From the NCBI GenBank assembly GCA_001799575.1, contig MGTT01000028.1, forward strand, positions 79,274 through 143,273: a stretch of 64,000 nt of DNA. Direction: 5' to 3'. Each line of letters begins with the position of its first letter. The stretch's first letter is position 1. Below the pieces are notes generated by a model, which ran no database searches, was not told the DNA's origin, and saw nothing but the letters and a program-made list of their open reading frames with translations. This stretch comes from Elusimicrobia bacterium GWA2_56_46. GTDB taxonomy: Bacteria; Elusimicrobiota; Elusimicrobia; Elusimicrobiales; UBA9959. Both the position numbers and the translations under genes were made by a program. Positions 1 through 63,825 of the stretch are shown one piece after another.

Positions 1-1694
1 TTGACGCGCCGCTTACGGCGGAGATCTCCCTGGAGGAAGCTCTGGCGCGCGGAAAAAAAGACGGTTTTATCTGCCTGGCCCACTCCTCGGGCGCCGTCTG
101 CGCCGGTTCGGAACTGGGCGCGGCATATTTCGCCCCTGGGGAACTTAAAGGCGAAGACAAAGCCGGCCTTTCGGTGCTGGTGCAGGATGTCCGGATCTTC
201 AAGGTCGCGGCCGGCCTGAAAAGCGTTCTGCATCTCATCGATTTCGAGCCGGTCCGCGAAATGAACAATTTTTTCGAACTTGAGATCGCTCACTCGCTCC
301 TGAGCGCGCGCAAGAGCGATCTCTCCAGGCTGGTCTTTGAGAAGACCGGCGCCCTTCCGCGTGAAGAAGGTTCCAGGGAAGAGCTCCTCACCGCCGCCGG
401 GGCTATGCCTCGCCTCTACCCGGAGATAAAGAAAGAACTGGCGGCGGCCGGGATGGAAAAGGTCTATTCCGAACTGGAACTGCCGCTGATCCCCGCGATC
501 TACGCCATGGAGCGCGCCGGTTTTAAAGTGGATCTCGGCGTGCTTAAAGAGCTTTCCGCCGATTTTTCGGCCAAGCTGGCCGCCATAGAGGCGGAAGCGG
601 AGCGGCTGACCGGGCATAAGGTGAATCTCAATTCTCCCAAGCAGCTGGGCTGGCTTTTATACGAGAAATTGAATATCCAGCTGGACGACGCCCAGAAAAA
701 GATGTTTAAGACCAAGGACGGCTACTCGACCGCCGAGGAGGTGCTGACTTTCCTGAAACCGGCCCATCCAGTGATAGAAAAACTCCTGGAATTCCGCGAG
801 ATCTCGAAACTGAAGTCATCTTTCGTGGACAACCTCCTGGCCGCGGCCGACGGGGAGGGCAGGGTTCACAGCACCTTTGAACAGGCCGGCACGGCCACCG
901 GCAGGTTCTCAAGTTCGAAGCCCAATCTCCAGAATATCCCGGCGCGTTCGGCCTACGGTCAGCTGGTGCGCCGCGCTTTTTGCGCCCGCCGCGGGTTCTC
1001 TCTTATGAGCGCCGACTATTCGCAGATAGACCTGCGGGTGCTTGCCCATGTTTCAGGAGATAAAAATCTGGTTTCGGCGTTCCGCTCAAACGAAGACATA
1101 CACCTGCGCACGGCCTCTGAAGTTTTCCACGCCGCTCCGGAACTGGTCACCAGGGAAATGAGGCGCTCCGCCAAGGCTATCAATTTCGGCATCGTCTACG
1201 GCCAGACCGCCCAGGGGCTTGCCCGTGAACTGGGGATTCCCAGGCCGGAGGCGGCCAAATACATAAAGCACTATTTCGAGGTTTACTCCGGGGTTAAATC
1301 CTGGATAGACGGGACTATAGATGCCGCGAAAAAGAACGGCTGCGTGACGACTTTTACCGGCAGGCGACGGGGCGTGCCGGAGATCAACGGAGCTAACGGG
1401 AACCTGCGGGCTTTCGCGGAGCGCGTGGCTGTGAATACGCCTATACAGGGCGGTTCGGCCGATATCATAAAGAAAGCCATGATAGACATCCACGCGAAGA
1501 TAAAGGGTTCCGATAAGATCGTCCTGGTTCTGCAGGTGCACGACGAGCTGGTTTTTGAAGTAAAAGCCGGCCACGAAGCCGAAGCCGCGCGTCTGATCAG
1601 GGACGGCATGGAGAACGCTTTCAAGCTGGAAGTGCCCCTGCGCGCAGACATCAAAGCCGGCCCCAACTGGCAGGATATGGAGCCTGTTCTTTGA
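1..1694 (+). CDS. polA: DNA polymerase I, C-terminal polymerase domain. The reading frame is open from the window start (phase 3) with no stop before 1694, so the gene begins upstream of the window.
   Basis: The translation contains family-A polymerase motifs such as QIDLRVLAHVSGD, NTPIQGGSADIIK and LQVHDELVFEV. The frame is continuous from position 3. Confidence 0.93.
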   Translation, partial: DAPLTAEISLEEALARGKKDGFICLAHSSGAVCAGSELGAAYFAPGELKGEDKAGLSVLVQDVRIFKVAAGLKSVLHLIDFEPVREMNNFFELEIAHSLLSARKSDLSRLVFEKTGALPREEGSREELLTAAGAMPRLYPEIKKELAAAGMEKVYSELELPLIPAIYAMERAGFKVDLGVLKELSADFSAKLAAIEAEAERLTGHKVNLNSPKQLGWLLYEKLNIQLDDAQKKMFKTKDGYSTAEEVLTFLKPAHPVIEKLLEFREISKLKSSFVDNLLAAADGEGRVHSTFEQAGTATGRFSSSKPNLQNIPARSAYGQLVRRAFCARRGFSLMSADYSQIDLRVLAHVSGDKNLVSAFRSNEDIHLRTASEVFHAAPELVTREMRRSAKAINFGIVYGQTAQGLARELGIPRPEAAKYIKHYFEVYSGVKSWIDGTIDAAKKNGCVTTFTGRRRGVPEINGANGNLRAFAERVAVNTPIQGGSADIIKKAMIDIHAKIKGSDKIVLVLQVHDELVFEVKAGHEAEAARLIRDGMENAFKLEVPLRADIKAGPNWQDMEPVL

Positions 1695-1794
1695 ACAGGT
1701 TCCTGCCACAAACCGAATATGGAATTAATACAGATGCTTATGGAAGCGGCGCACGATAGAGCGGGGTCCTGCCGGGGGGCAACCTTTTCGCGTT
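1689..1794. repeat. Left copy of a ~105 bp direct repeat. It begins inside the polA stop codon and ends partway into the first arm of a palindromic element.
   Basis: Positions 1689-1794 (tttgaacaggtt ... atggaattaatacagatgcttatggaagcggcgcacgatagagcggggtcctgccggggg) are near-identical to 3527-3632. Confidence 0.8.
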
Positions 1795-1943
1795 TTTATA
1801 TAATATAAATATGGGTTCCAAATTAACTAAATATTCTTGCAGCCTTAACCAGGAGGAACTTGACTGGCTTCGTCTTTCTCCCGCAAAACGGATGATTGAG
1901 TCCGCGAAGCTGTGGAAGTTTTACCTGGCGATAGGAGGAAAAC

Positions 1944-2693
1944 TTGACTCTCAGCCCGATCCTCAAGGTCCTTTCAACTTTCCGAAAGCAAAAAGTTAAA
2001 TCCCTGCTTATAGGCGGGCAGGCATGTATCGTATACGGAGCCGCGGAATTCAGCCGTGATTCCGACTTTGTCGTGCTGGCTTCCCCGTCAAATCTTAAAG
2101 CGTTGGCCGGCGCATTAAAAGTGTTAAAAGCCGTTCCGGTATACTATCCCGAATTGACGATCCATTATCTGCTTAAGGGCCATGCCTGCCATTTTCGCTG
2201 TGGAGCGAGCGGGGTGGAGGGTTTGCGGGTTGATATTATGTCGAAACTGAAGGGTTGCGACGCCTTTGGGAAACTTTGGGCCCGGCGTAACCGCGTGAAA
2301 ATTTCAGGATTGGGCGCGGTAGATATAATTTCGCTTGCAGATCTTGTTCAAAGCAAAAAAACCCAGCGTGACAAGGACTGGTTTATGTTAAACCGTCTTG
2401 TGGAAAATGACATTTTTATAAATGAGGGCTCCGGTTCCGCCGCCAAAGTTAACTGGTGGCTTGCCCAATGCCGGGCGCCGGAAACGCTTGCGCGGCTTTG
2501 TTCTGATCATCCGGGACAGGCCCGCGGAGGTATCACGCGCAGGCCGCTTTTACGCGAAGCTGTGAAAAATAATTTAAAAAAGCTGTCTGAGCTGCTTAAA
2601 AAAGAAGAGGCTGCGGAAAGGGCAAAAGATTTAAGCTACTGGCTGCCATTAAAAAAAGAACTGGAAAAGCTCCGTCTGTCCCGTGAGCGATAA
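1944..2693 (+). CDS. Nucleotidyltransferase-fold protein, AbiEii/DUF1814-like (a putative type IV TA/Abi toxin). The assignment is by motif only.
   Basis: The N-terminus carries LIGGQACIVYGAAEFSRDSDFVV, which matches the hGG...(R)FSxDhDh nucleotidyltransferase signature of the AbiEii family. The ORF is 249 aa and is flanked by AT-rich DNA. Confidence 0.5.
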   Translation: MTLSPILKVLSTFRKQKVKSLLIGGQACIVYGAAEFSRDSDFVVLASPSNLKALAGALKVLKAVPVYYPELTIHYLLKGHACHFRCGASGVEGLRVDIMSKLKGCDAFGKLWARRNRVKISGLGAVDIISLADLVQSKKTQRDKDWFMLNRLVENDIFINEGSGSAAKVNWWLAQCRAPETLARLCSDHPGQARGGITRRPLLREAVKNNLKKLSELLKKEEAAERAKDLSYWLPLKKELEKLRLSRER

Positions 2694-2905
2694 GCGTTGG
2701 TGTGATCGGGTCAACGAAGCTCATATAGAGTAAAAAAGGTAGACGCTGCCTTTTCCTTAAAGCCGGCCACAAGTCGAGCGGTATTGAATTTTAACCCTTG
2801 ACGGCGCACTATATTTTGTATATACTATATGTAGCACAATAATGTAGTGCACGGATGTTTGCCGGCCATAGGCCGGATACGGCGCCGGTATGGACTGGGA
2901 GTCTC

Positions 2906-3175
2906 ATGAAAATCTCCGATTTTGAGTGGGATAGGGCCAACGAAGCTCATATTGCCAGGCACAATGTTACTCCGGCTGAGGCGGAAGAAGTTTTTCTTTC
3001 GGAATATTTTCTCCGTAAAACTCATTCAGGGCGTTACGGTCTCTATGGCCGGAGTTTTCATGGCCGCTGTTTATTTATCGTTTTCGAAAAACTTAAAGGT
3101 AATGTTGCCAGGATAATCACAGCCAGGGATATGGCGGACAAAGAGAAAATATTTTATCGGAGGGTGAAAAGATGA
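2906..3175 (+). CDS. brnT: BrnT-family toxin (DUF497 ribonuclease toxin).
   Basis: The start motif MKISDFEWDRANEAHIARHNVTPAEAEEVF is typical of BrnT/DUF497. The stop overlaps the downstream start as ATGA. Confidence 0.75.
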   Translation: MKISDFEWDRANEAHIARHNVTPAEAEEVFLSEYFLRKTHSGRYGLYGRSFHGRCLFIVFEKLKGNVARIITARDMADKEKIFYRRVKR

Positions 3176-3486
3176 AAAACCGCAAACTGCCGCATTTTAA
3201 AACAAGGGAAGAAGAGGCCGAATTCTGGGATACTCATTCCATGGCGGATTATCTGGGCGAGTTGGAATGTGCGGATGAGGTTTTTACCCTCGCGCCGTCT
3301 TTGGCGGAGAAAATCAAGGAGAGGGCAAAGACAAAGGCTGTTTCGCTAAGGCTTCCTCAATGGGAAATCGACGGGGCCAAAAGAGTCGCCAAAAAAGAGG
3401 GCGTAGGCTATCAGGTTTTAATCAATACCTGGATCGCCGAAGCTTTGAGACGTGAAGCGCACCGCACCCGCAGGGCCGGTACATAG
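3172..3486 (+). CDS. brnA: BrnA-family antitoxin (CopG/RHH-like).
   Basis: The gene is translationally coupled (ATGA) to the upstream brnT. Its size of 104 aa and its context fit BrnA, and the C-terminus is an RHH-like basic region. Confidence 0.65.
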   Translation: MKNRKLPHFKTREEEAEFWDTHSMADYLGELECADEVFTLAPSLAEKIKERAKTKAVSLRLPQWEIDGAKRVAKKEGVGYQVLINTWIAEALRREAHRTRRAGT

Positions 3487-3526
3487 CGATTAATGAATGG
3501 GAAAGGTAGTTGCTGCCTTTTTTATT

Positions 3527-3680
3527 TGAACAGGTTTAAGTCACAAGTCGAACATGGAATTGATACAGATACTTATGGAAGCGGCGCACGATAGAGCGGG
3601 GTCCTGCCGGGGGATAACCTTTTCGCGTTCCCTCGGCCGCCTGCGGGGTCGAAAAGGTTACGCCCCCGTCACCCCTTCCC
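3527..3680. repeat. Right copy of the ~105 bp direct repeat, followed by a complete palindromic hairpin element.
   Basis: Positions 3527-3632 match 1689-1794. The palindrome ggggataaccttttcg...cgaaaaggttacgcccc closes the element. Confidence 0.8.
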
Positions 3681-3888
3681 TGTTCCCTTATCCTGAGATC
3701 CTTAAAAAATATAATTGTTACCATCCAAATTATCTCTTAAATTATCCGCCCTTTAATAGTCGAGGAATGGGGGGGACGTAGCTCGGTTTCTTGATTATTT
3801 TTAATATGCTTGGATTCGCAATTATGCGCCCAGTAAAAATAGTTAGTCAACTAGTCAACAACGTCCCCGTACCCTCGGGAAGATATAA

Positions 3889-4085
3889 AATGGAGGGGGC
3901 GGCGGCGGGTTTTCTGCGCGCTCCATTTGAGGGTTTAAAACCGGAGTCTGGAGCAGTATCCCTCCGGGACGGCGAGGATGTTTGAGGGCAAAAGCTTTGT
4001 CTTTTGCCCGAGTTCCGGAGCCGGCGGAGGACTCCGGTTTTCTTCCCCGGAAACCCGAACCCGGAGCGCGCGGGAAACCCGGCGA
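3889..4085. ncRNA. Structured RNA, copy 1. It is a rod-like hairpin of ~180-195 nt with a long closing stem. The family is unassigned (6S-like is the working hypothesis) and the strand is undetermined.
   Basis: The closing helix pairs cgggttttctgcgcgctcc with ggagcgcgcgggaaacccg. An inner helix pairs ccggagtc with gactccgg, and there is a central hairpin gggcaaaag...cttttgccc. A second copy at 54805-55005 preserves these helices through compensatory changes. Confidence 0.55.
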
Positions 4086-4135
4086 CGACCCCGGACAGTG
4101 CAATCGTCTTTAACAGCGGGCATCGTATTGAGGAT

Positions 4136-4159
4136 CATTTTGCTGACGTCAGCAAAATG
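4136..4159. promoter_or_regulatory. 24 bp perfect palindrome, CATTTTGCTGACGTCAGCAAAATG, a candidate operator upstream of the rhomboid gene.
   Basis: The sequence is an exact inverted repeat centred on GACGTC. It lies ~100 bp upstream of the ATG at 4257 and ~70 bp upstream of an AT-rich -10-like stretch (tatataat). Confidence 0.35.
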
Positions 4160-4256
4160 GTGGATATTGGGAGTGGTGCGGAGCGATCCATTAAACCTCT
4201 GGCAGCTTAAACCGATTTGTGAGCATATATAATATAAAAAGATCGGATGGGCGGAG

Positions 4257-5060
4257 ATGACGCTGTCATTGCGCCCGCCCTCTTTGAATGACCTGCCGCC
4301 TGTGGCTCGGGGGGTGGTGGTGGCGTGTTTCTGCGGATGGGTGCTGGAACTGGCGTTCGGGGGGGCGCTGAACCATTATTTTGGCCTCGTGCCGGCTAAA
4401 GTTATCGGCTCCGGCTGGCTCTGGCAGCCTCTTACTTACATATTCATACACGCCGGTTTCTGGCACTTCCTCTTTAACGCCTTCATGATCTGGATGCTGG
4501 GCCCGGTAATAGAATCGGCCCTGGGTTCCAGGAAGTTCTTTGTTTATTTCCTGTTCTGCGGCGCGGCGGCGGGACTTTTTACGGTAGCCGTAAGTCCCGC
4601 CTCTCTCCGGCCCGTAATAGGCGCTTCCGGCGCCGTCTACGGGCTTATGTACGCTTTCGCCGCGCTTTATCCGGAGCAGATCGTATATATGTATTTCCTT
4701 TTCCCCATGACCGCGCGCCAACTGGTCGTCTTCCTGGCCGGTCTTTCGCTGATCCTCAGTTTCACCACCCCCAATTCCAGCGTGGCCAACTTCACCCATT
4801 TAAGCGGCCTCGCCGCTGGCTGGTTGTATTTCCACACCGCGGTGTGGCTGGAAAATAGCGCGGCAGGAAGAGTAGTGGCTAGAGGACTCGAGGGCTGGAG
4901 GACTCGCAGCGAGTCACGAGTCACGAGTCACGAAATACAAAACTCCAGAAGGGTTGACGCTATTCTCGAAAAAATTTCCAGTCAAGGCGAAGCCGCCCTT
5001 ACCTCCGCCGAGCGCCGCGAACTGGACGAATACGCCAAAACGCGCGGCGGCCGCGCGTAA
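4257..5060 (+). CDS. Rhomboid-family intramembrane serine protease.
   Basis: The protein has multiple TM helices, the rhomboid motif GASGAVYGL and a conserved His in a later TM. The C-terminal tail contains a (GAGTCAC)x3 repeat. Confidence 0.8.
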   Translation: MTLSLRPPSLNDLPPVARGVVVACFCGWVLELAFGGALNHYFGLVPAKVIGSGWLWQPLTYIFIHAGFWHFLFNAFMIWMLGPVIESALGSRKFFVYFLFCGAAAGLFTVAVSPASLRPVIGASGAVYGLMYAFAALYPEQIVYMYFLFPMTARQLVVFLAGLSLILSFTTPNSSVANFTHLSGLAAGWLYFHTAVWLENSAAGRVVARGLEGWRTRSESRVTSHEIQNSRRVDAILEKISSQGEAALTSAERRELDEYAKTRGGRA

Positions 5061-5201
5061 CAGGGCGGGTAATTACGCCGTACCATGATTGGGTGGGATT
5101 AAGATGCTATATTTTAAGGGAGCGCCGGGGATTTGATCTTAACCGGCATCCATTGCGTAAGTTTAATGGAGGGCCGCCGGCGGGTATAGTTGGAGGGGTG
5201 G

Positions 5202-5259
5202 CGGGACCATGCCTTTTCGTCCCGCAGGTTGCCGAGGGAAGCGGAAAGGCATGGTCCCG
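5202..5259. repeat. Palindromic hairpin element of the same family as 3590-3680 and 54528-54610, in inverted orientation.
   Basis: cgggaccatgccttttcg ... cggaaaggcatggtcccg forms a ~17 bp stem. The loop is approximately the reverse complement of the loop in the other copies. Confidence 0.6.
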
Positions 5260-5370
5260 ACAGGACCCCGAACTCGCAGCCGCCTGTGTCCCGACTGGGC
5301 ATCTCGCGGCTTTAAACCCAAAGTCAACTATCCCGGCGTTACATTGCGGTGAAAAGGTGAACGGGAATTT

Positions 5371-7371: not shown

Positions 7372-7447
7372 AGTGGCCGGTGAATAGTGGATAGTGGTCA
7401 GTAGTTAAGAATTTTTTTGTTTGCTACTCACCACTTGTCACTGATCA
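7372..7447 (+). repeat. Tandem heptamer array (AGTGGCC GGTGAAT AGTGGAT AGTGGTC AGTAGTT) followed by an inverted partner (caccacttgtcactgatcactg). It lies downstream of rho and ~65 bp upstream of the M23 peptidase start.
   Basis: The 7-nt periodicity can be read directly. The motif recurs at 63785-63825 and, on the opposite strand, at 23522-23549. Confidence 0.7.
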
Positions 7448-17694: not shown

Positions 17695-18254
17695 TCTTTA
17701 ACGTCTCGAATTCTTCCGGCTGGATAGAGGTGGTCTGCGGGAGTATGTTCTCCGGCAAGACCCAGGAACTTATAAGGCGTCTGCGGCTTGCCAGTATCGC
17801 CAGACAGAAAGTGCAGGTTTTCAACTCGCATCTGGATGTGCGGTACGGCAAGGAACATCTCGTTTCCCACGACAAATCCATGCTTCCCTCCCGTCCCGTA
17901 AAGACGGCCAGGGACATCCTCAAAGAGGTGGATCACGACACCCAGGTTGTGGGCATAGACGAGGCGCATTTTTTCAAAGAGGATATAGTGGAGGTCTGCC
18001 AGAAGCTGGCTAACTCCGGGAAGCGCGTGATAGCGGCGGGCCTGGATCAGGATTACCGCGGGGAGCCTTTCGTTAATATGGCCAGCCTGATGGCGATTTC
18101 CGAGTTCGTCACAAAGAACCTCGCCATCTGCATGGTCTGCGGCAACCCGGCGCATTTCAGCCAGCGCCTTACCGACAGCTCCAGGCGCATAGAGGTCGGC
18201 GCCGCGGACAAGTATGAGGCGCGCTGCCGCAAATGCTTCACGCCGGAGAAGTAG
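17691..18254 (+). CDS. tdk: Thymidine kinase.
   Basis: The P-loop GSMFSGKT, the C-terminal zinc ribbon CxxC...CxxC and the ~190 aa size fit Tdk. Confidence 0.88.
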   Translation: MIFNVSNSSGWIEVVCGSMFSGKTQELIRRLRLASIARQKVQVFNSHLDVRYGKEHLVSHDKSMLPSRPVKTARDILKEVDHDTQVVGIDEAHFFKEDIVEVCQKLANSGKRVIAAGLDQDYRGEPFVNMASLMAISEFVTKNLAICMVCGNPAHFSQRLTDSSRRIEVGAADKYEARCRKCFTPEK

Positions 18255-18255
18255 C

Positions 18256-18753
18256 ATGTACCGTTCCGACAAGTCCAATGAGCCCATGCTTTTCCCCAGG
18301 CTTTTTCACCTCGGGGCCAGGCTGGACTATTCCAACCGCTGGCTGAAACTGGCCGAGGCCATGCCGTGGGAAAAACTGGACGAACTGTACGGGAAATATT
18401 TCGCGAAGAATTCCGGCCGCCCCGCCAAAGACTCCCGGCTCATAACGGGGCTTTTGACGGTGAAGCTGGTGAAGAATCTTTCAGACGAGGAAGCCGTTAG
18501 GGAATTCATGGAGAGTCCCTACATCCAGGCTTTCTGCGGCGCCGAATATTTCTCCGTGGAAGACGTCCTCAGTCCAAGCGTCCTCTCGGAACGCCGCAAG
18601 CGTCTCGGCGAGGATTTCTTCTCTTTCTTCGATTCGGAAGTAGTCCGCCTCCTCAAAGATTCAAAAGCCTTCCGCCTTAAATCCGTCAAAGACCCCGGAA
18701 ACGCCGGTCTGATCGCCCGTCTAATAACCGCAATAAAAAACATATTCGGTTGA
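18256..18753 (+). pseudogene. Transposase N-terminal fragment (DUF772 domain of IS5/IS1182-type transposases), truncated and lacking the DDE domain.
   Basis: SRLITGLLTVKLVKNLSDEEAVREFMESPYIQAFCG matches the conserved transposase N-terminal domain. The ORF stops after ~165 aa, and the next gene is on the other strand. Confidence 0.6.
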
Positions 18754-18831
18754 TTCCCGATATAAGGTAACGCCGGGCTGGTTGGCTTTGGGTTATGCTT
18801 CGCTATCCTGCGGTTCTATACCCAAAGCTGT

Positions 18832-20127
18832 TTACGGGCTCCAGTTGGGGGTGGTGGTGCGGCCTTTCAGGTCGGTCAGGGGGTGGGGGGCCGAACCGTC
18901 GGCGTCCATGATATACAGTTCCCGCCGGCCCCTCCGGCTGGACGTGAACGCGATGAACCGGCCGTCCGGCGACCAGGACGGATCCTCGTTGTCGCCGCTG
19001 TTGTTGGTCAGACGGCGTATCTGACCGCCCGTCAGATCCGTAAGGAAAATATTCAACTTTTCCTTAGCCGTCTCCCGCCCGGAAAAAACTATCCATTCCC
19101 CGGACGGAGACCAGTTGGGGGAGTCGCACCAGTTCAGACGCGTAAGTTTGCGTGTTTTCTTCGTCTCAAGATCCAGCACGTAGATCTGCGGGTTTCCGGC
19201 CAGATCGGAAATAAAGGCTATCTGCCGCCCATCGGGGGCGTAGGTCGGTGAAGAACTGACGCTGAAACGGGTCAGCAGCTTTTTCAATTCTTTCGTGACC
19301 ACGTTAAGGCTGTAAATATTGGGGTCGTCGCCCCTTGAAAGGGTCATCACCATGGTCAGGCCGTCGGGCGAGAAGCCGCCGGGGATGTTCAGGCCCTGGA
19401 AAACCGTGAAAGGCCTTATCTTTCCGGCTTTCAGGTCTATCTCAAACATATCCGGATTGCCGTAGCGGTAGGTCGTGTAATATATCCTGGAGGAGTCCTG
19501 CGACCACCTGGGCAGCAGCGCTATGGAGCGGTCGTCCGTGAGCTTCGTCAGGTTCTCTCCGTCGTAGTCCACGGAGTAGATCTCCTTGGAGCCGGTCGCG
19601 TTGTTGGAGAAAGCGATCTTTGAATGCGCGATACCCTTTCTTCCCGTCACCCGCAGGATCACGTCGTCCGAGAAAAGATGGGCGGCCCGCCGCATGGCTC
19701 TCGGCTCTCCCTGGTAGAATTTTTCCAGAAGGATCTTCCCGCTCTCCAGTTCGTGGAGACGGGCCGTGAAGGTCCAGACTTTTTCGTTTTGGGAGGCCTT
19801 GCCGCTCACCAGCCATCCGGCGCCAAGAGTTTTCCAGAATTTAAGGGCTTCGGGGGCCGTGGACAGGCTGGCCGGGTTAAGGGGCTCTTCCTTGATATCG
19901 AAGTACCGTGAATACATCAGATCCGCCCGGATGATGTCGCGGAACCGGCCTGCGAGCTCCAGGTCTTCCGGCTTTTCCGGTCTGGCCGGCAGGAAGTCGG
20001 CGATGGCCAGGGCGGTCTTATTGTATTCCTTGCCGGCGGCGACGCCGATATAGACGTCGGTCTGCGCCCCCACGCGGCCGGCTCCGGCCAGGCAAAGGAT
20101 CAGCACCGTTACGAAAGCTCTTTTCAT
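18832..20127 (-). CDS. tolB: Tol-Pal system beta-propeller protein TolB.
   Basis: There is a signal peptide, a TolB N-terminal domain and repeated PDG..IAF/YV propeller blades. Confidence 0.9.
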   Translation of the reverse strand: MKRAFVTVLILCLAGAGRVGAQTDVYIGVAAGKEYNKTALAIADFLPARPEKPEDLELAGRFRDIIRADLMYSRYFDIKEEPLNPASLSTAPEALKFWKTLGAGWLVSGKASQNEKVWTFTARLHELESGKILLEKFYQGEPRAMRRAAHLFSDDVILRVTGRKGIAHSKIAFSNNATGSKEIYSVDYDGENLTKLTDDRSIALLPRWSQDSSRIYYTTYRYGNPDMFEIDLKAGKIRPFTVFQGLNIPGGFSPDGLTMVMTLSRGDDPNIYSLNVVTKELKKLLTRFSVSSSPTYAPDGRQIAFISDLAGNPQIYVLDLETKKTRKLTRLNWCDSPNWSPSGEWIVFSGRETAKEKLNIFLTDLTGGQIRRLTNNSGDNEDPSWSPDGRFIAFTSSRRGRRELYIMDADGSAPHPLTDLKGRTTTPNWSP

Positions 20128-53808: not shown

Positions 53809-54432
53809 TCACTTTGCAGCTATCCCAAACCTTGCCGCCAGCCTGGCGGTTATGGCCGCGTGTATTTTCTCCACGGATCCGGCGGCGTCGATCCTGAAAG
53901 AGCCTGGACGCGCGGCCAGAGCCGAGTAGGCCTTGTTGACCCTGAGCCTGAAAGCGGTGTCCTGGCGTTCCATCCTGTCCGATCCAAGGTTCCTGCCGCG
54001 CTTGAAAAACTCGCTGTCAGGCATGGTGAAAACGATGGTCAGATCCGGCTTGAGGCCGGCGGTGGCTATGCGGTTCAGTGTCGCGACCATTTTGAGATCC
54101 AGTTTTCTGCCGTAGCCCTGGTAGGCCGTGGTGGCCATGGTGAAGCGGTCGGAGATGATTATTCTCCCGGCTTTCAGGGCGGGCCTGATTATGTCGGCGG
54201 TATGCTGCGCCCTGGCGGCCTCGTAAAGCAGGAGTTCGGTCAGGGGGCTGATCTTGTTTTCAGGGTCGAGGAGAATCTCGCGGATGGCCTCGGAAATGCG
54301 CGCCCCTCCGGGTTCGCGGGTTAAAACCGTTTTGAGGCCTTTTTTCTTCAGCCAGGCGGCCAGAAGTCCGGCCTGGGTGGATTTGCCGGAGCGATCCGGT
54401 CCCTCGAAGACTATAAAGAGGCCTCTTTTCAT
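53809..54432 (-). CDS. tmk: Thymidylate kinase.
   Basis: The P-loop FIVFEGPDRSGKST, the DRF motif and the position upstream of holB fit Tmk. Confidence 0.9.
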   Translation of the reverse strand: MKRGLFIVFEGPDRSGKSTQAGLLAAWLKKKGLKTVLTREPGGARISEAIREILLDPENKISPLTELLLYEAARAQHTADIIRPALKAGRIIISDRFTMATTAYQGYGRKLDLKMVATLNRIATAGLKPDLTIVFTMPDSEFFKRGRNLGSDRMERQDTAFRLRVNKAYSALAARPGSFRIDAAGSVEKIHAAITARLAARFGIAAK

Positions 54433-54527
54433 ACCTATATGATAGCAACAGAAAGCTAAAGAAAGCAACGGAACGCCAATCGAAGTAATGTAACGCCGAG
54501 CCAGTGGATTTTGGGTGAAGCTCCGCA

Positions 54528-54610
54528 GGATAGTAAAGCGGGGGCCTGCCGGGGTGAGGCCTTTTCGCGTTCCGTCGGCGGCCTGCCGGGTCGAAAAGGC
54601 CTCACCCCGG
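54528..54610. repeat. Palindromic hairpin element of the same family as 3590-3680.
   Basis: ggggtgaggccttttcgcgttccgtcggcggcctgccgggtcgaaaaggcctcacccc is a perfect 17 bp stem. It is preceded by a gatagtaaagcgggggcctgccgggg leader similar to the one at 3590. Confidence 0.75.
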
Positions 54611-54804
54611 CACCCCGCATAAGGCTTACGCGCTTGATGGTCGCTCGACTAAATTTCCCGGCGCTCGCCTCAACCCCAAGCCACTTATAAAACAAAGCCG
54701 CCGGTTTCCCGGCAATGGTGGTAAATGCACTGTATCTTAAAAAGGGCGGGATAATGATGTTGTGTTTTAGGTCGTAACGTGAGGAACTACAATACGCGTA
54801 AGTT

Positions 54805-55005
54805 TTAGGGAGGGGCGGCGCCGGGTTTTCTGTGCGCTCCATTCGGAGGGTTTTAAGACCGGGGTCTGGAGCGTATCCCTCCGGGACGGCGGTGAATGTT
54901 TGAGGCAAAAAACTTTGCTTTTTTGCCGAGTTCGCACGCCGACGGAAGACCCCGGTCTTCTTCTCCATAAAACCCGAACCCGGAGCGCGCGGGAAACCCG
55001 GCGCC
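54805..55005. ncRNA. Structured RNA, copy 2. It is paralogous to 3889-4085, and its helices are maintained by compensatory substitutions.
   Basis: The closing helix pairs ccgggttttctgtgcgctcc with ggagcgcgcgggaaacccgg. The inner helix pairs ccggggtc with gaccccgg, compared with ccggagtc/gactccgg in copy 1. The central hairpin is ggcaaaaaac...ttttttgcc. Confidence 0.55.
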
Positions 55006-55417
55006 GCCCCGACTCCGCTATCCTGCGGTTCGTAACTCAAAGTCAATCAGCCATGCGCAAGTTTACGAACATCCGGAGCGGCCGCAGTCGTGGCAGGTGG
55101 GGCCGGAACAGCCGGGATTCATAACTTGCATGGGAGGACTCCCAGGCGATGCCGACGCTGGCCGGTGATACGTGATGTTTTGCCGAGCCGCGAAATTAAA
55201 CTATAATCTGGAGATGTCAATGAGGACAGGTGTGGCGATGATTTTAACCGCTAATATACCTTTAGGCAATATTTATGCAACACGGAAATACTAAAGTCAG
55301 TCTGGAGGCGCGGCAATCTGGAAGCGGGGCAATTTATAGCCTTACATCCCGAACCTGAACCGCTTTACGCCTTTGCCTCTAAGCGGTTTTGCATCTATAT
55401 AACGGAGCGAATAAAAT

Positions 55418-57844
55418 ATGCCCGATCAATTCGACGAGTCCTCGCTTAACGAGGAAGCCATAACCGACGTGGAAACGGCCAGGCTGGCTTTACGCTGGGC
55501 ACTGGACAAGATCCGCGCTTTGCAGGAAGAGGCCATGCGTTCCAGGCAGAATCTGCAGGAGAAGTCTTCCCAGGCGGCGTTCATTGAGAACCAGCTGAAA
55601 GGGAAGAACTCGGAGATCGAAAGGATCCTGCGCACCCACGAAGAGGAGCTGAAGTCCACCCAGAATTCGCTGGAGTACCAGTTCCGCTCAAAACTGGAGC
55701 GGCTCGCCGAAAGAGAAAAGGAACTGGAAGACAAGTCCTCCAGGCAGGAGGAGATCCTTAAGCAGAAAGAGACCAGACTGCTTGACGATTATCAGAAAAA
55801 ATCTGACGAGCTGCGCGCCCGCTGGGCCCAGGTGGAAGCCGAGCTCTGGCGGCTGCGCCAGGAACATATGCTCAAGCAGCAGGAATTCGAGAAGCTTTAT
55901 GCCGCCAGGCTTGAGGACGAGCGCGCCAAGGCCGCCGCTGAAATGGAGAACGTCCGCGCCGGGTTCGAGAAGACTTACGCCGACAGGATCGCGGATCTGG
56001 AAAAAAGGGAACGCGCCGCCGCCGACGAACTGAAAAAGCAGGAAGCCATGCTCAAGTGGTCCAAAGACAGCTTCCAGGCCGAGGCGGCGGAGCGCGAAAA
56101 AGCTTTAAAGCAGAAAGACCTGGATATCGAAAAAAAATTGATGGAGAAAAACCAGGAGATAGAGGATTACAGGGTAAAAGAGGGCCTGCTTCAGAAGCAG
56201 TTGTCTGATCTGCCCGAGGCTGTCCGCAAGCGCGATGAAGATCTGAACAGGTACAAGCAGGCCATGGAGAGCCTCGAAAGCGTCATCCGCACCCTCGAAA
56301 ACGAGAAAAAAAACCTGCGGGCCGAGCTGGAACAGAAGGTGTCGCGCCTGAACGAGGCCCTGGAGGCGGAGAAGAAAAAGTACGGAGAAATGGAGGCTGA
56401 GATCCCCAAGCGGCTCAAGATCGCCGTAGAGCACGAGCGCGGCCGGCTGACCGAACGGCTTGCCGGCGTGGAGGCCGGTTACAAGGAGGATCTGCGCCGC
56501 CGCCAGGAAGAGGCGGCGTATCTTGAAAGAACCCTTAAGACCCTGGAGGAGAACAACAAGACCCTGCAGGCGGAGCGGGACTCTTTTTCGTACAAGATAG
56601 AGCAGTTACAGACCCAGTACGGCATAAAACAGGAGGAATTTTCTTTCAGGGAAAAGCAGCTTCAGTCCGAATATGACGTCAGGCTCAAGGTGGAACTGGA
56701 AAAACAGTCGGAGGCCATGAGGAACGAGCTTGAGTCGGCCCGGCGTATTTACGAGGACAATCTGCGCCTGAAAATAGAGGAGATAGCGCACCTGCGCCGG
56801 GAACTGGAGGGGGCCGTAAACGACAGGATGTCTTTCCAGACCCAGGCCGCCGAATTACGCCGCGCCGTGGACGCCGTCAAGGCCAAAGGCGAGAACGAAC
56901 TGTCCGCCCTCCGGGCGCAGCTTAAAGGCGCGTATGAACGGCAGCTTTCCGCGGAGCTTGCGGAAGCCGGGGATCGCCAGGCCGCGGAAAAGCAGAAGCT
57001 CGCCGCGGCTTTCGACGCGCGGCTCAAAGAAGAGGGGCTTGAAGTTTCCAGAAAAGAGGAGGAACTTCAGCGCCTCAGGAACGACATGAACAGGCTGGAA
57101 GCGGCCGGCAGGGAGGCCCTGGCCGCGGAGCGCCAGCGCGGGAAGACTGAGCTCCAGGTCCAGGCGGCGTCGTTCGCCGATACGGTGAAGATCTACGAGG
57201 ACAAGGTGAGCAACCTTAACAAGGCGATGGAGTCGCTGAAAGTGGAAAGAGAGGAGATGATCCTCCTGGAACGGGAGCGGCTTGAGAGGTTATATTCCGA
57301 AAAAGAGAAAGATTTCGACGAAAGGCTTTACCGGAAAGATCAGGAAGCGGTGCGTCTGCGGGAAGAGGCCTCCGGCCTGCGCAACGAGCGCGCCAATCTC
57401 GCCGCCGAACTGGCCAGGGAAAAAGAGCTGGGGAATGGGCGGATCCGCGTTCTCAACGAGAAACTGACGGGCAAGGAAGCGGAATTCCAGGGCCGCCTGG
57501 ACGAAGCCCTCGGGAAAGAGATGCGGCGGGCGGGGGAAACGCTTGACAAAAAGAATCAGGAACTGGACGCTCTGCTTCAGGCGAAAGAGACCCAGGAAAA
57601 TATGTACCGTAAGTCGCTGGAGGAGTTCCGGGCCAGGCTTTCCGAGGCCGTGACCAGGCTTGAGACGCTTAAAAAACTGGCTGATGAACGGGGCGCGCGC
57701 GTGGACGCCCTGGAGCGGGAACTGGATCAGATCCGGAAGTTCTCTTCCGAAGAGAACTCCTCCCTCGCCGCCAGGCTGGCCGCAAAGGAAAAGGACTGGC
57801 GCGAGCTGAGGGCCGAGTATGAGAAGCTGAAGAATGGGGGATGA
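55418..57844 (+). CDS. 808-aa protein that is coiled-coil for nearly its whole length (cytoskeletal or scaffold-like, with no recognisable enzymatic domain).
   Basis: It is extremely rich in E, K, R, L and A, with heptad-like periodicity throughout. There is no TM helix or signal peptide, and the ORF is long and uninterrupted. Confidence 0.7.
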   Translation: MPDQFDESSLNEEAITDVETARLALRWALDKIRALQEEAMRSRQNLQEKSSQAAFIENQLKGKNSEIERILRTHEEELKSTQNSLEYQFRSKLERLAEREKELEDKSSRQEEILKQKETRLLDDYQKKSDELRARWAQVEAELWRLRQEHMLKQQEFEKLYAARLEDERAKAAAEMENVRAGFEKTYADRIADLEKRERAAADELKKQEAMLKWSKDSFQAEAAEREKALKQKDLDIEKKLMEKNQEIEDYRVKEGLLQKQLSDLPEAVRKRDEDLNRYKQAMESLESVIRTLENEKKNLRAELEQKVSRLNEALEAEKKKYGEMEAEIPKRLKIAVEHERGRLTERLAGVEAGYKEDLRRRQEEAAYLERTLKTLEENNKTLQAERDSFSYKIEQLQTQYGIKQEEFSFREKQLQSEYDVRLKVELEKQSEAMRNELESARRIYEDNLRLKIEEIAHLRRELEGAVNDRMSFQTQAAELRRAVDAVKAKGENELSALRAQLKGAYERQLSAELAEAGDRQAAEKQKLAAAFDARLKEEGLEVSRKEEELQRLRNDMNRLEAAGREALAAERQRGKTELQVQAASFADTVKIYEDKVSNLNKAMESLKVEREEMILLERERLERLYSEKEKDFDERLYRKDQEAVRLREEASGLRNERANLAAELAREKELGNGRIRVLNEKLTGKEAEFQGRLDEALGKEMRRAGETLDKKNQELDALLQAKETQENMYRKSLEEFRARLSEAVTRLETLKKLADERGARVDALERELDQIRKFSSEENSSLAARLAAKEKDWRELRAEYEKLKNGG

Positions 57845-61971: not shown

Positions 61972-63060
61972 ATGGCTATAAATCTTAATATGCTGCTGAA
62001 AGTGATGGTGCAGAACAAGGCGAGCGATACGCATATAAGGGGCGGCTCTCCCGTGTTCCTGCGCATAGACGGCCGGATCACGCAGATCAACGACTCTTCC
62101 ATGACTCCCAAAGAAGTGGAAGATATGATTTTCCCGCTGATGAACCCGCGCCTCCGGTCGGTGTTTAACGAGAAACACGAGGTTGATTTTTCGGTGGACG
62201 GCGGGGACACGGGCCGCTTCCGTTTCAATGTCTACGTTCAGAAAGGCAGGATCTGCGTGGCCATCCGGCATATTCCCCTGAAGATCCCCACATTTGAAGA
62301 GCTCCGGCTCCCCGTCGACCCCGTAAAGAAGCTGCTTGTGAACGAACGCGGCCTCATCCTGGTGACGGGTATTACCGGTTCCGGCAAGACCTCCACCCTG
62401 GCCGCCATGGTGGAATACCTGAACCAGAGCTGGGAGAGCCACATCATAACCATCGAGGATCCGATAGAATTCGTTTTTACGGACAAGAAAAGCATAATCA
62501 GCCAGCGCGAGATCGGAACCGATACCAATAGTTTCGTGGACGCCCTGCGCGCGGCCATGCGTCAGGATCCCGACATTATCCTTGTGGGAGAGATGCGCGA
62601 CCTGGTGACCACGCAGGCGGCTATAACCGCCGCGGAGACGGGACACCTGGTTTTCGCCACAATGCACACCGTCAACGCCGTTCAGACCCTTTCCCGGATC
62701 GTGGATCTTTATCCGCCGCACCAGCAGCCGCAGGTGCGTATGCAGCTGTCGGAAACTCTCAGGGGCGTAGTTTCCCAGCGCCTGCTGCCCTGCACCGGCG
62801 GCGGGCGTATCCCGGCCGTGGAGATTCTCACCGGCACGGCGCACATAAAGAAGATGATCGCCGAGAATAATATGGATTCGATAAGCCAGGCGATAGCGAA
62901 AGGCGCCTTTTACGGAATGCAGTCTTTCAATCAGTCCCTGGTCGGGCTGCATAAAAAAGGCCTGGCGAAACTTGACGACATTATCCAGGCGGCTTCTAAC
63001 CCGGACGATGTTCTGCTGGCCATCAAAGGCATAGAGCAGGAAATAGAGACGAAACATTAG
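61972..63060 (+). CDS. pilT: Type IV pilus retraction ATPase PilT.
   Basis: Walker A GITGSGKT, Asp box, Walker B and His box are present. The length is 362 aa. Confidence 0.88.
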   Translation: MAINLNMLLKVMVQNKASDTHIRGGSPVFLRIDGRITQINDSSMTPKEVEDMIFPLMNPRLRSVFNEKHEVDFSVDGGDTGRFRFNVYVQKGRICVAIRHIPLKIPTFEELRLPVDPVKKLLVNERGLILVTGITGSGKTSTLAAMVEYLNQSWESHIITIEDPIEFVFTDKKSIISQREIGTDTNSFVDALRAAMRQDPDIILVGEMRDLVTTQAAITAAETGHLVFATMHTVNAVQTLSRIVDLYPPHQQPQVRMQLSETLRGVVSQRLLPCTGGGRIPAVEILTGTAHIKKMIAENNMDSISQAIAKGAFYGMQSFNQSLVGLHKKGLAKLDDIIQAASNPDDVLLAIKGIEQEIETKH

Positions 63061-63069
63061 GAGATAATT

Positions 63070-63789
63070 ATGTTCGCAGAGGGTTATATCGGCGTGGCGG
63101 GTCTTATCGGCGTGGGAAAGTCCACTCTCACCATGGAGCTGGCCAAGGCCCTCAATTTCGAGCCCGTGCTTGAGGAAGTGGGCGGCAATCCCTACCTGGA
63201 AAATTTTTACGGCGACATGAAAAAATACGGAACCATCATGCAGATCTGGCTTCTGAACCACCGCTTCCGACAGCACCGGGAGTTCGTTTCCAGGATAAGT
63301 CTCGGCAAGATCCGCGGCGTGGTGCAGGACCGCACCATCTGGGAAGACACGATCTTCGCGCGCATGCTGAACCAGCATCCCGACAAGATCATAAGCGACA
63401 TGGATTATAACACCTACCTGGATCTCTTCGACAACATGGTTCTGCGCGAGCTGGTGTTTCCGCAGCTGCTGATCTTCCTGGATTGCCGCGTGGAGACGTC
63501 CATAGAACGGATAAATTCCCGCGGCCGCAACATGGAAAAAGCGATCGAAGCGGACTATCTGAAGAGTCTCCAGGAGAACTATTACCAGTTCATCGAAGAG
63601 ATGGAGTCCGCCGGCGTCAGGATCCTGCGGCTCAACTGGGAAAATTTCCAGCCGATAAGCGAAGTGGTGCGCCTCGTGAACGAGTACTCGCTTAAACCGT
63701 CCAATTTTACGAAGTGGGTCCGTCCGTTGAGGAAGATGGGGATGGAAAATAAGGCCAACCTGCCCAATAAGATCACGGTGGCTAAGTGA
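63070..63789 (+). CDS. Deoxynucleoside kinase (dGK/dCK family).
   Basis: The P-loop GLIGVGKST, an ERS-like motif and the dNK fold are present. Confidence 0.78.
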   Translation: MFAEGYIGVAGLIGVGKSTLTMELAKALNFEPVLEEVGGNPYLENFYGDMKKYGTIMQIWLLNHRFRQHREFVSRISLGKIRGVVQDRTIWEDTIFARMLNQHPDKIISDMDYNTYLDLFDNMVLRELVFPQLLIFLDCRVETSIERINSRGRNMEKAIEADYLKSLQENYYQFIEEMESAGVRILRLNWENFQPISEVVRLVNEYSLKPSNFTKWVRPLRKMGMENKANLPNKITVAK

Positions 63790-63825
63790 GAGTGGTCAGT
63801 GATTAGTGGATAGTGGTCGGTGGGG
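63785..63825 (+). repeat. Tandem heptamer array (AGTGAG AGTGGTC AGTGATT AGTGGAT AGTGGTC GGTGGGG). It overlaps the dNK stop and lies ~42 bp upstream of cmk.
   Basis: The 7-nt periodicity can be read directly, and the motif is the same as at 7372-7406. Confidence 0.7.

Follow-up and report, generated by a model that had tools for sequence, protein, structure and literature searches.

A previously undescribed family of ~200-nt structured RNAs in groundwater Elusimicrobia

Two copies of a structured RNA, here called B, lie in the window analyzed in this work, a 64,000-nt stretch of Elusimicrobia bacterium GWA2_56_46 (contig MGTT01000028.1). Purifying selection acts on the B fold as an RNA, on the plus strand, and B constitutes a previously undescribed family that is absent from curated RNA collections and confined to a clade of groundwater Elusimicrobia. 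Copy 2 forms part of a modular unit that also serves unrelated cargo RNAs. With roughly even confidence, we take the B copies to be independently transcribed, stable noncoding RNA genes of ~200 nt, read from the plus strand, with an invariant internal region that probably binds a protein. An earlier note, made by reading the window's sequence, had described two paralogous copies of an unassigned, possibly 6S-like RNA. It saw a real structured RNA but read it too narrowly: The paralogy stands, but the element is a member of a multicopy modular family that the note overlooked.

Fold, strand, and conservation of the B RNA

Copy 1 (B1; 3893–4092, plus strand) and copy 2 (B2; 54809–55011, plus strand) are given in window coordinates, with limits set by matches to R1, a covariance model built from both copies. 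R1 scores B1 at 227.5 bits and B2 at 237.1 bits, and the folding energies are far lower than those of shuffled controls: minimum free energy (MFE) −115.3 kcal/mol, z = −5.7, for B1 and −135.9 kcal/mol, z = −10.9, for B2. The two share one rod fold on the same strand and are 91% identical over 204 aligned columns (85% by global pairwise alignment). B1 forms a ~200-nt rod: Its closing helix of 26 bp leads into a central region that is invariant, beyond which lie the helix P2, a three-way junction, and the apical arm. Five base pairs differ between the copies on both sides with pairing preserved; among them are the two exchanges singled out by the earlier note, in the inner helix (ccggAgtc/gacTccgg to ccggGgtc/gacCccgg) and in the apical hairpin (gggcaaaag/cttttgccc to ggcaaaaaac/ttttttgcc). 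The closing helix that the note put at 18–19 bp is indeed present in both copies but is longer, 26 bp in B1 and a perfect 29 bp in B2.

To measure covariation, 25 distinct full-length homologs, drawn from metagenomes and from Elusimicrobia metagenome-assembled genomes (MAGs), were aligned with MAFFT without regard to structure; for this alignment, RNAalifold predicts 60 pairs. Partners can pair in 94.2% of cells, compared with 79.7% when partners are shuffled and 38–52% when they are slid by one to three columns. Two-sided changes occur in 42 of the 60 pairs, and none of 500 shuffles reached any of the five pairing measures. A model-fitted alignment of 27 B sequences gives the same picture. 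Covariation had been proposed as the mark of a functional RNA from the two copies, and the compensatory changes hold across the homologs. The strand, left open at that time, is now assigned: Paired cells contain 82 G-U against 14 A-C combinations, and selection therefore acts on a plus-strand RNA rather than on symmetric DNA. B1 also folds at −115 kcal/mol on the plus strand and at −101 kcal/mol on the minus strand.

B1 and B2 are 200–203 nt long, and P1 (the closing helix, 26–29 bp), P2 (13 bp), and the apical arm all covary, with 21–23 covarying pairs in P1 and 8–9 of the 13 in P2. Between P1 and P2 lies an almost invariant, asymmetric central region of ~16 nt on the 5′ side (AUU.GAGGGUUUUAAG) and ~25 nt on the 3′ side (UUC.CCAUAAAACCCGG.CCC). 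Within it, GGGUUUU/AAAACCC can form 7 bp in 89–90% of cells; this pairing is almost invariant, so that covariation speaks neither for nor against it, and by eye it shifts register coherently to GGGGUUU/AAACCCC in the divergent homologs L032, L116, and L050. P2 is followed by a GGA/GGA internal loop, which is Watson–Crick paired in L013 and L020, and by the three-way junction, which carries a small hairpin and a near-invariant sequence (AGC-GUAUCCCUCCGGGACGG ... GCCGGCGGA). Part of the invariance of this junction motif is ascertainment, the 17-mer GTATCCCTCCGGGACGG having served as search key; the motif does vary in second copies recovered from such loci (L042, L046b). The tip of the apical arm is a covarying 9-bp hairpin, and insertions of 25–40 nt are tolerated in some members.

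Mechanical open reading frames (ORFs) of 64–84 aa overlap the element. The statement that neither copy holds a plausible ORF stands nonetheless, because the AUG in the apical arm is absent from several homologs and substitutions track helices, not codons. The idea that B might contain a conserved small ORF or encode a type I toxin was rejected on the unconserved AUG and on a stop codon that differs between B1 and B2.

The Rfam comparison that the earlier note had proposed was run on both copies and matched no curated family. At the gathering score, Rfam 15 finds two tRNAs in the window and no 6S RNA, signal recognition particle RNA, RNase P RNA, or transfer-messenger RNA (tmRNA). At E ≤ 10, the regions 3400–4300 and 54400–55450 yield only chance matches of microRNA-precursor and long noncoding RNA models to long hairpins. 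Searches of 16 further loci, eight homologous and eight carrying sister elements, returned nothing relevant: No 6S model matched the homologous loci at E ≤ 5, and the A-, D-, and E-type cargos described below were unmatched. A literature search on Elusimicrobia with 6S or structured RNA likewise found nothing relevant.

B1 lies upstream of a rhomboid gene (4257–5060), whose protein is 100% identical to A2X28_06715 of GWA2_56_46. A related MAG, L001, has an R1 homolog at the same position, 59 nt upstream of a rhomboid gene whose protein is 71% identical; L043 also has a B copy there. The closing helix of the L001 homolog is almost wholly different in sequence and still perfectly paired. A second relative, L002, has no B homolog near rhomboid. 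A metagenome scan with the 17-mer gave at least 119 loci, with ~28 true model matches among the matches listed, and a trailer-pattern genome scan added copies from named Elusimicrobia MAGs. The exact trailer pattern occurs at nine sites in RIFOXYA12_FULL_51_18, four in GWA2_61_42, four in SKS1.bin123, and one each in five other Elusimicrobia MAGs; other phyla gave ~8 featureless matches, near the prior estimate for chance. By our own check, the pattern recovers only about half of known trailers, and ~10–20 units per genome is a reasonable estimate rather than a count. A weak model match at 62191–62327 proved to be coding sequence.

The copies are old. RIFOXYA12_FULL_51_18 holds at least six of them, 72–87% identical to one another, and its closest counterparts are 92% identical to B1 and 88% identical to B2, whereas B1 and B2 are 85% identical. 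Because each is closer to a copy in that genome than to the other, B1 and B2 represent old paralog lineages and not recent bursts. Taken with the synteny at rhomboid, the divergence among copies and the closer relatives across genomes therefore point to retained old paralogs rather than fresh insertions.

Modular units around and beside the B copies

The unit around B2 begins with a promoter-like region and leader (54744–54808, plus strand), in which a GGGCGGG box (54744–54750) and an AT-rich box precede ...ACGCGTAAGTTTTAG. It ends with a C-rich trailer of ~55 nt (GACTCCGCTATCCTGCGGTTCGTAACTCAAAGTCAATCAGCC...; 55007–55064, plus strand), which matches a trailer profile, built from 38 units for nhmmer, at E = 2.8e-13. 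In general, a promoter-like stretch, which combines one or two copies of GGGCGGG with an AT-rich box, comes first and is followed by a ~55-nt leader ending in GCGUAAGUUU (in B2 and many homologs), a cargo, and a ~55-nt C-rich trailer of consensus GACUNNGC(U)AUCYYGCGGYUC..CCAAAGCCAACCAGCCCGGCGUUACC. Leader and trailer are common to A-, B-, C-, D-, and E-type middles, and the promoter-like region and leader are conserved upstream of B and other cargos at many loci.

Both copies are intergenic and preceded by AT-rich, promoter-like sequence, as first described. What that description missed is that the gap also holds an opposite-strand unit of the same family: A hairpin of ~84 nt lies ~200 nt upstream of each B copy and is followed by a trailer on the minus strand, which identifies these hairpins as units divergent from B. 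The A′ unit (54486–54680, minus strand), divergent from B2, consists of a leader, an 84-nt hairpin (54537–54620; MFE −64.3 kcal/mol, z = −7.2), and a canonical trailer (54486–54541; profile E = 2.6e-08), and tmk starts ~50 nt downstream of it. The A unit (3522–3760, minus strand), divergent from B1 and convergent with polA, has a hairpin at 3592–3675, a variant trailer (CTCTATCGTGCGCC...), and a promoter-like TTGACT-N18-CATAAT at 3850–3821 on the minus strand. Its hairpin (repeat family D2) is 81% identical to 54534–54608, with compensatory stem changes; the helix of A-type cargos is ~24 bp and near-perfect.

B1 itself lacks a canonical leader and trailer, as do L043, L057, L032, L116, L050, L052, L013, L020, L100, and L042. 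Because many homologs are without these flanks, B is autonomous, and the canonical leader and trailer are dispensable. The flank-less copies, including B1, the syntenic L043, and many divergent homologs, have an AT-rich box just ahead of the helix. Just upstream of B1, a TATAAA box can be read at 3884–3889 (plus strand); as a possible −10 element, it would place the transcription start close to where the closing helix begins. In leaderless homologs, comparable AT-rich boxes lie 6–25 nt upstream of the helix. The promoter-like sequences of the units resemble the tRNA promoters of the window.

Further units and remnants lie elsewhere in the window. The C unit (5063–5345, plus strand) has two GGGYGGG boxes (5063–5097), a leader, a 122-nt cargo (5171–5292) with an A-like core within an extra helix, and a canonical trailer (5290–5345; profile E = 2.2e-15); it folds at −110 kcal/mol (z = −4.2). 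It occupies the entire gap between rhomboid and coaE, and in L001 the unit is absent and the two genes overlap. A displaced duplicate of the A unit's 3′ half, comprising half a hairpin and the trailer (1687–1794, minus strand), abuts the polA stop codon. In a cargo-less trailer remnant at 18763–18834, the 3′ half of a trailer, inverted, is joined to the 5′ half of a trailer; the remnant matches the trailer consensus exactly on the minus strand and the profile on both strands. It directly follows what is left of the N terminus of a truncated IS5-like transposase (DUF772, 179 aa; 18214–18753, after tdk) and lies against the end of a convergent TolB-like gene.

In related genomes, the trailer also follows cargo families D (...GCAUAGCGGAUGGGGGGCCCCG...GGGAAACCACGGGAGGGUUUCC) and E (...GGUUAGCAAAACC...GCUUGCAUAAGCGC...GAGGCCACGGUGUGGCCGA), which often stand back to back ~75 nt apart (L124 5530–5940; L141, L142, L148, L127, and others). 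Head-to-head divergent pairs of units recur at distances of 75 nt to 2.3 kb, and ORFan genes occupy the space inside some pairs; ORFs between unit pairs gave no Pfam or PADLOC match except for one transglutaminase-like protein.

Units are scattered among housekeeping genes, tight against gene starts or ends. The following gene is co-directional in about half of the cases and otherwise convergent, ending at the trailer. A role of the unit as the 5′ untranslated region or promoter module of that gene was rejected on this mixed orientation and because ORF808, the gene that follows B2, is preceded by a promoter-like site of its own. ORF808 (808 aa, 55418–57844; promoter-like site at 55180–55207) shows only a weak match to the coiled-coil DUF7491 and no significant Pfam or PADLOC match. 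AGTGG-rich intergenic repeats (AGTGGTCAGTGATTAGTGGATAGTGGTCGGT) occur at 7372–7402, just after rho, and at 63770–63821, in a gap near the window end, and AGTGG-like stretches (TAGCTAGTGGCTATTGGCTAG) lie ahead of the B copies in L032 and L116.

The gap between polA and rhomboid holds different inserts in three genomes. In the window, it includes a 1.7-kb island (1795–3521) with an ORF of 249 aa without Pfam match (1944–2693) and a BrnT/BrnA toxin–antitoxin pair (2855–3486). The island is bracketed by a direct repeat of 108 nt (D1; 1687–1794 vs. 3522–3629, 89% identical) that corresponds to the 3′ half of the A unit; the exchange thus maps to the apex of the hairpin. The island contains no integrase.

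Several readings of unit parts were considered and discarded. A single ~330-nt rod closed by leader–trailer pairing is suggested by single folds of some units, in which the ends pair; across leader and trailer of 17 units, RNAalifold gives only 4 bp of consensus pairing, at −1 kcal/mol. GGGYGGG is not a genome-wide motif by its frequency in the window (30 observed vs. 35 expected). Likenesses, all noted by eye, of trailer CCUGCGGUU to the 16S rRNA 3′ end, of D-type GGGGGGAAACCACG to RNase P, of ...GGCAGGCCCCC to the 4.5S RNA 3′ end, and of GCUCU.UA to boxA were dropped as short and without model support, as was a possible tandem G-A/K-turn at the cargo base.

Candidate roles of B

In the reading we favor, each unit would be transcribed from its own σ70-type promoter. 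Because no intrinsic terminator follows, the 3′ end is proposed to arise either through processing or through termination by Rho within the trailer, which is rich in C and poor in G. The mature rod would act in trans: Its invariant internal region probably binds a cellular protein, which it would titrate or scaffold, and the covarying helices may serve as rigid, nuclease-resistant spacers. The conserved promoter-like region that accompanies the units and the AT-rich box that leaderless copies keep near the helix are consistent with transcription of this kind. The favored reading also draws on the retention of old paralogs, on the autonomy of B, and on the duplication of the A unit's 3′ half around the BrnT/BrnA island, an arrangement in which the unit resembles structured RNA genes such as those for tRNA and tmRNA. 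No partner is encoded in cis: Among 92 proteins from genes lying within 2.5 kb of units, no family is enriched.

Other observations weigh against independent RNA genes. The start and end of the transcript, and expression itself, are all inferred. A simple σ70 scan calls no promoter directly upstream of B1 or B2, the TATAAA box included, and no intrinsic terminator follows either copy. A perfect 29-bp helix is normally a substrate of RNase III. No binding partner or target of B was identified. The units also behave like repeats. Close relatives differ in whether they carry them (near rhomboid, L002 lacks one); the rhomboid site of L057 has a D-type cargo fused to a leftover 3′ arm of B's closing helix; and contigs often break inside the B element, with 6 of ~40 B matches ended by a contig edge, as repeats tend to be. 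L057 (7160–7500, minus strand) and L001 (5743–5942, a complete B) are close relatives compared at the same site, and the L057 arrangement represents a cargo replacement by recombination. In L132 (RIFOXYA12_FULL_51_18), a B copy is flanked by a full inverted trailer in the manner of a terminal inverted repeat: The inverted trailer on its 5′ side and the normal trailer on its 3′ side (2210–2262 and 1952–2008) form a long perfect palindrome, and the copy is probably a promoter-less recombinant.

A broader version of independent RNA genes is one we hold only tentatively. It would make the units (A, B, D, and E) RNA gene cassettes of a new class, each equipped with a promoter and enclosing its own stable structured RNA between a shared leader and trailer, arranged in divergent pairs and swapped between loci by recombination, with the center of B binding a global machine, possibly RNA polymerase in a 6S-like manner, and the paralogs forming a protein-titrating set.

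That B is instead a BOX- or ERIC-like interspersed repeat we consider possible but somewhat unlikely. It would then be a non-autonomous palindromic element that moves or recombines slowly, is co-transcribed with its neighbors, and serves at most in cis as an mRNA stabilizer, insulator, or terminator; the RNA structure would persist simply because the element consists of it. Much about the units invites this comparison. Several to ~20 of them sit among housekeeping genes of a genome, tight against gene ends; close relatives differ in presence and cargo at the same locus; contigs break within copies; and the leader start AAGGAAGCGCCGGG is similar to the trailer end CCCGGCGTTACCTT when one of them is reverse-complemented, with inverted trailers in L132 and at 18763–18834. 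BOX, ERIC, and Correia-type repeats resemble the units in modular build, extensive structure, dispersed intergenic copies, slow turnover, and the lack of a known transposase. The shared leader and trailer around interchangeable middles follow the left–middle–right logic of pneumococcal BOX (boxA-boxB(n)-boxC), which folds extensively and is transcribed (PMC3049150).

Other features fit this comparison less well. The G-U excess and the invariant internal loops exceed the needs of terminal repeats, the copies are old and diverged (72–92% identical), and the mixed orientation toward the next gene leaves no single cis role that fits. BOX occurs in >100 copies, whereas we estimate ~10–20 units per genome; the middles here are distinct conserved structured RNA families, not tandem boxB repeats; a conserved promoter-like region lies inside the unit and travels with it, and covariation is strong and strand-specific. 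Leader–trailer pairing is unsupported, and many B copies lack the shared flanks.

Signs of mobility were also sought. By eye, no target-site duplication appears at unit borders compared across loci. None of the 25 best-represented families among the 92 neighboring proteins is a transposase, integrase, or reverse transcriptase, and an association with any of these or with a defense protein was rejected, none having been found near units. No reverse transcriptase, as in a retron msr–msd arrangement, lies adjacent to B1 or B2. BLAST found no homolog in phage, plasmid, and viral-contig collections; a phage or plasmid origin was set aside on this result, with four IMG/VR pattern hits that either fail the model or are coding sequence. 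Miniature inverted-repeat transposable elements are marked by near-identical copies from recent bursts, whereas B copies are 72–87% identical within one genome. The promoter-like region lies outside the inverted-repeat-like ends, which are missing altogether from B1, L043, and many other copies. The DUF772 fragment, the only transposase fragment in the window, has ends that are not those of the neighboring trailer remnant. The earlier note had held that membership in a known repeat or insertion sequence would count against its proposal; B is a member of a repeat family, though not of a known one, and no link to an insertion sequence was found.

The 6S suggestion of the earlier note has fared poorly, and we now regard an RNA polymerase decoy as improbable. 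In such a role, the rod would mimic an open promoter through its central region, and paralogs would serve different sigma factors or conditions. The overall architecture is close to that of 6S RNA (ssrS; RF00013 and relatives). B is a double-stranded rod with closing and internal stems, its ~200 nt falling within the 6S range of ~180–200 nt (~160–200 nt for the rod), and it can stand as an intergenic gene of its own. Two long covarying helices flank a conserved asymmetric internal region, and covarying helices around an invariant center are the pattern of 6S RNAs. Paralogs occur in both, some bacteria having two 6S copies. The 7-bp pairing inside the center is invariant, hence unproven. If formed, GGGUUUU/AAAACCC would shut most of the bubble, and the register shifts seen by eye in L032, L116, and L050 would fit such pairing. 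No Rfam 6S model matches either copy at E ≤ 10 or the eight homologous loci at E ≤ 5. The three-way junction, with its extra arm, interrupts the downstream arm. 6S RNA usually occurs in one or two copies per genome, compared with two B copies in the 64-kb window and at least six in RIFOXYA12_FULL_51_18. The same flanking cassette also carries unrelated cargos, among them plain hairpins, that are incapable of promoter mimicry.

Two further readings are very unlikely. In one, B would be a long-hairpin precursor with near-perfect helices of 20–30 bp, from which RNase III or a comparable nuclease would release small duplexes that act as guides or regulators. All cargo types have long, near-perfect GC-rich helices (29 bp in B2, ~24 bp in A), and the shared flanks could act as common processing signals; the helices covary freely while the loops are conserved, the opposite of what a guide requires, and neither complementary targets within the window nor a nuclease or Argonaute-type gene nearby were found.

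In the other, which we also give very little credence, the palindromes would act as DNA, as recombination or attachment sites of a variable hotspot, with the RNA incidental. The BrnT/BrnA island at the apex of hairpin A with its 108-nt duplication, the ORFan genes between divergent unit pairs, the L057 cargo replacement, and the differing polA–rhomboid inserts would suit it. The strand-specific G-U bias and the loop conservation would be left unexplained, and neither the island nor the neighboring proteins yielded an integrase. The attC core consensus of integrons is GTTRRRY/RYYYAAC; unit ends (AAGGAAGCGCC ... GGCGTTACCTT) do not fit it, and units are single or in divergent pairs, not in same-orientation arrays. 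Integration would follow from the units being structured RNA genes and is not in itself a function. The island recalls those that target tRNA and tmRNA genes: It lies beside an intact A unit with a displaced 3′-half duplicate on its far side, and the crossover falls at the apex of the unit's symmetric stem-loop. The A unit is neither a tRNA nor a tmRNA, no integrase remains in the island, and the comparison concerns A beside B1 and not B.

Relation to regulatory RNA families and significance

For B as a set of independently transcribed RNA genes, a further comparison is with multi-paralog small-RNA families such as Qrr and protein sponges of the RsmX/Y/Z type. Shared features are several diverged paralogs, a conserved motif in a variable frame, and, as proposed for B, independent intergenic transcription. 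B differs in being much larger and more rigid, in lacking repeated GGA-in-loop motifs and an intrinsic terminator, and in that no seed or target was identified.

Elusimicrobia are almost wholly uncultured, and we found no literature on their noncoding RNAs. B provides a large, well-covarying fold with no curated relative, carried in a cassette that is common to at least three other structured RNAs absent from Rfam. The alignment and model are sufficient to seed an Rfam-style family, and the question of expression can be addressed with existing groundwater metatranscriptomes. If BOX/ERIC-like, B would represent unusually clear RNA-level selection on an interspersed repeat and would mark hotspots of genome plasticity. 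If trans-acting, it would be a new regulatory family and a candidate for the system that takes the place of 6S-type regulation, or adds to it, in this lineage.

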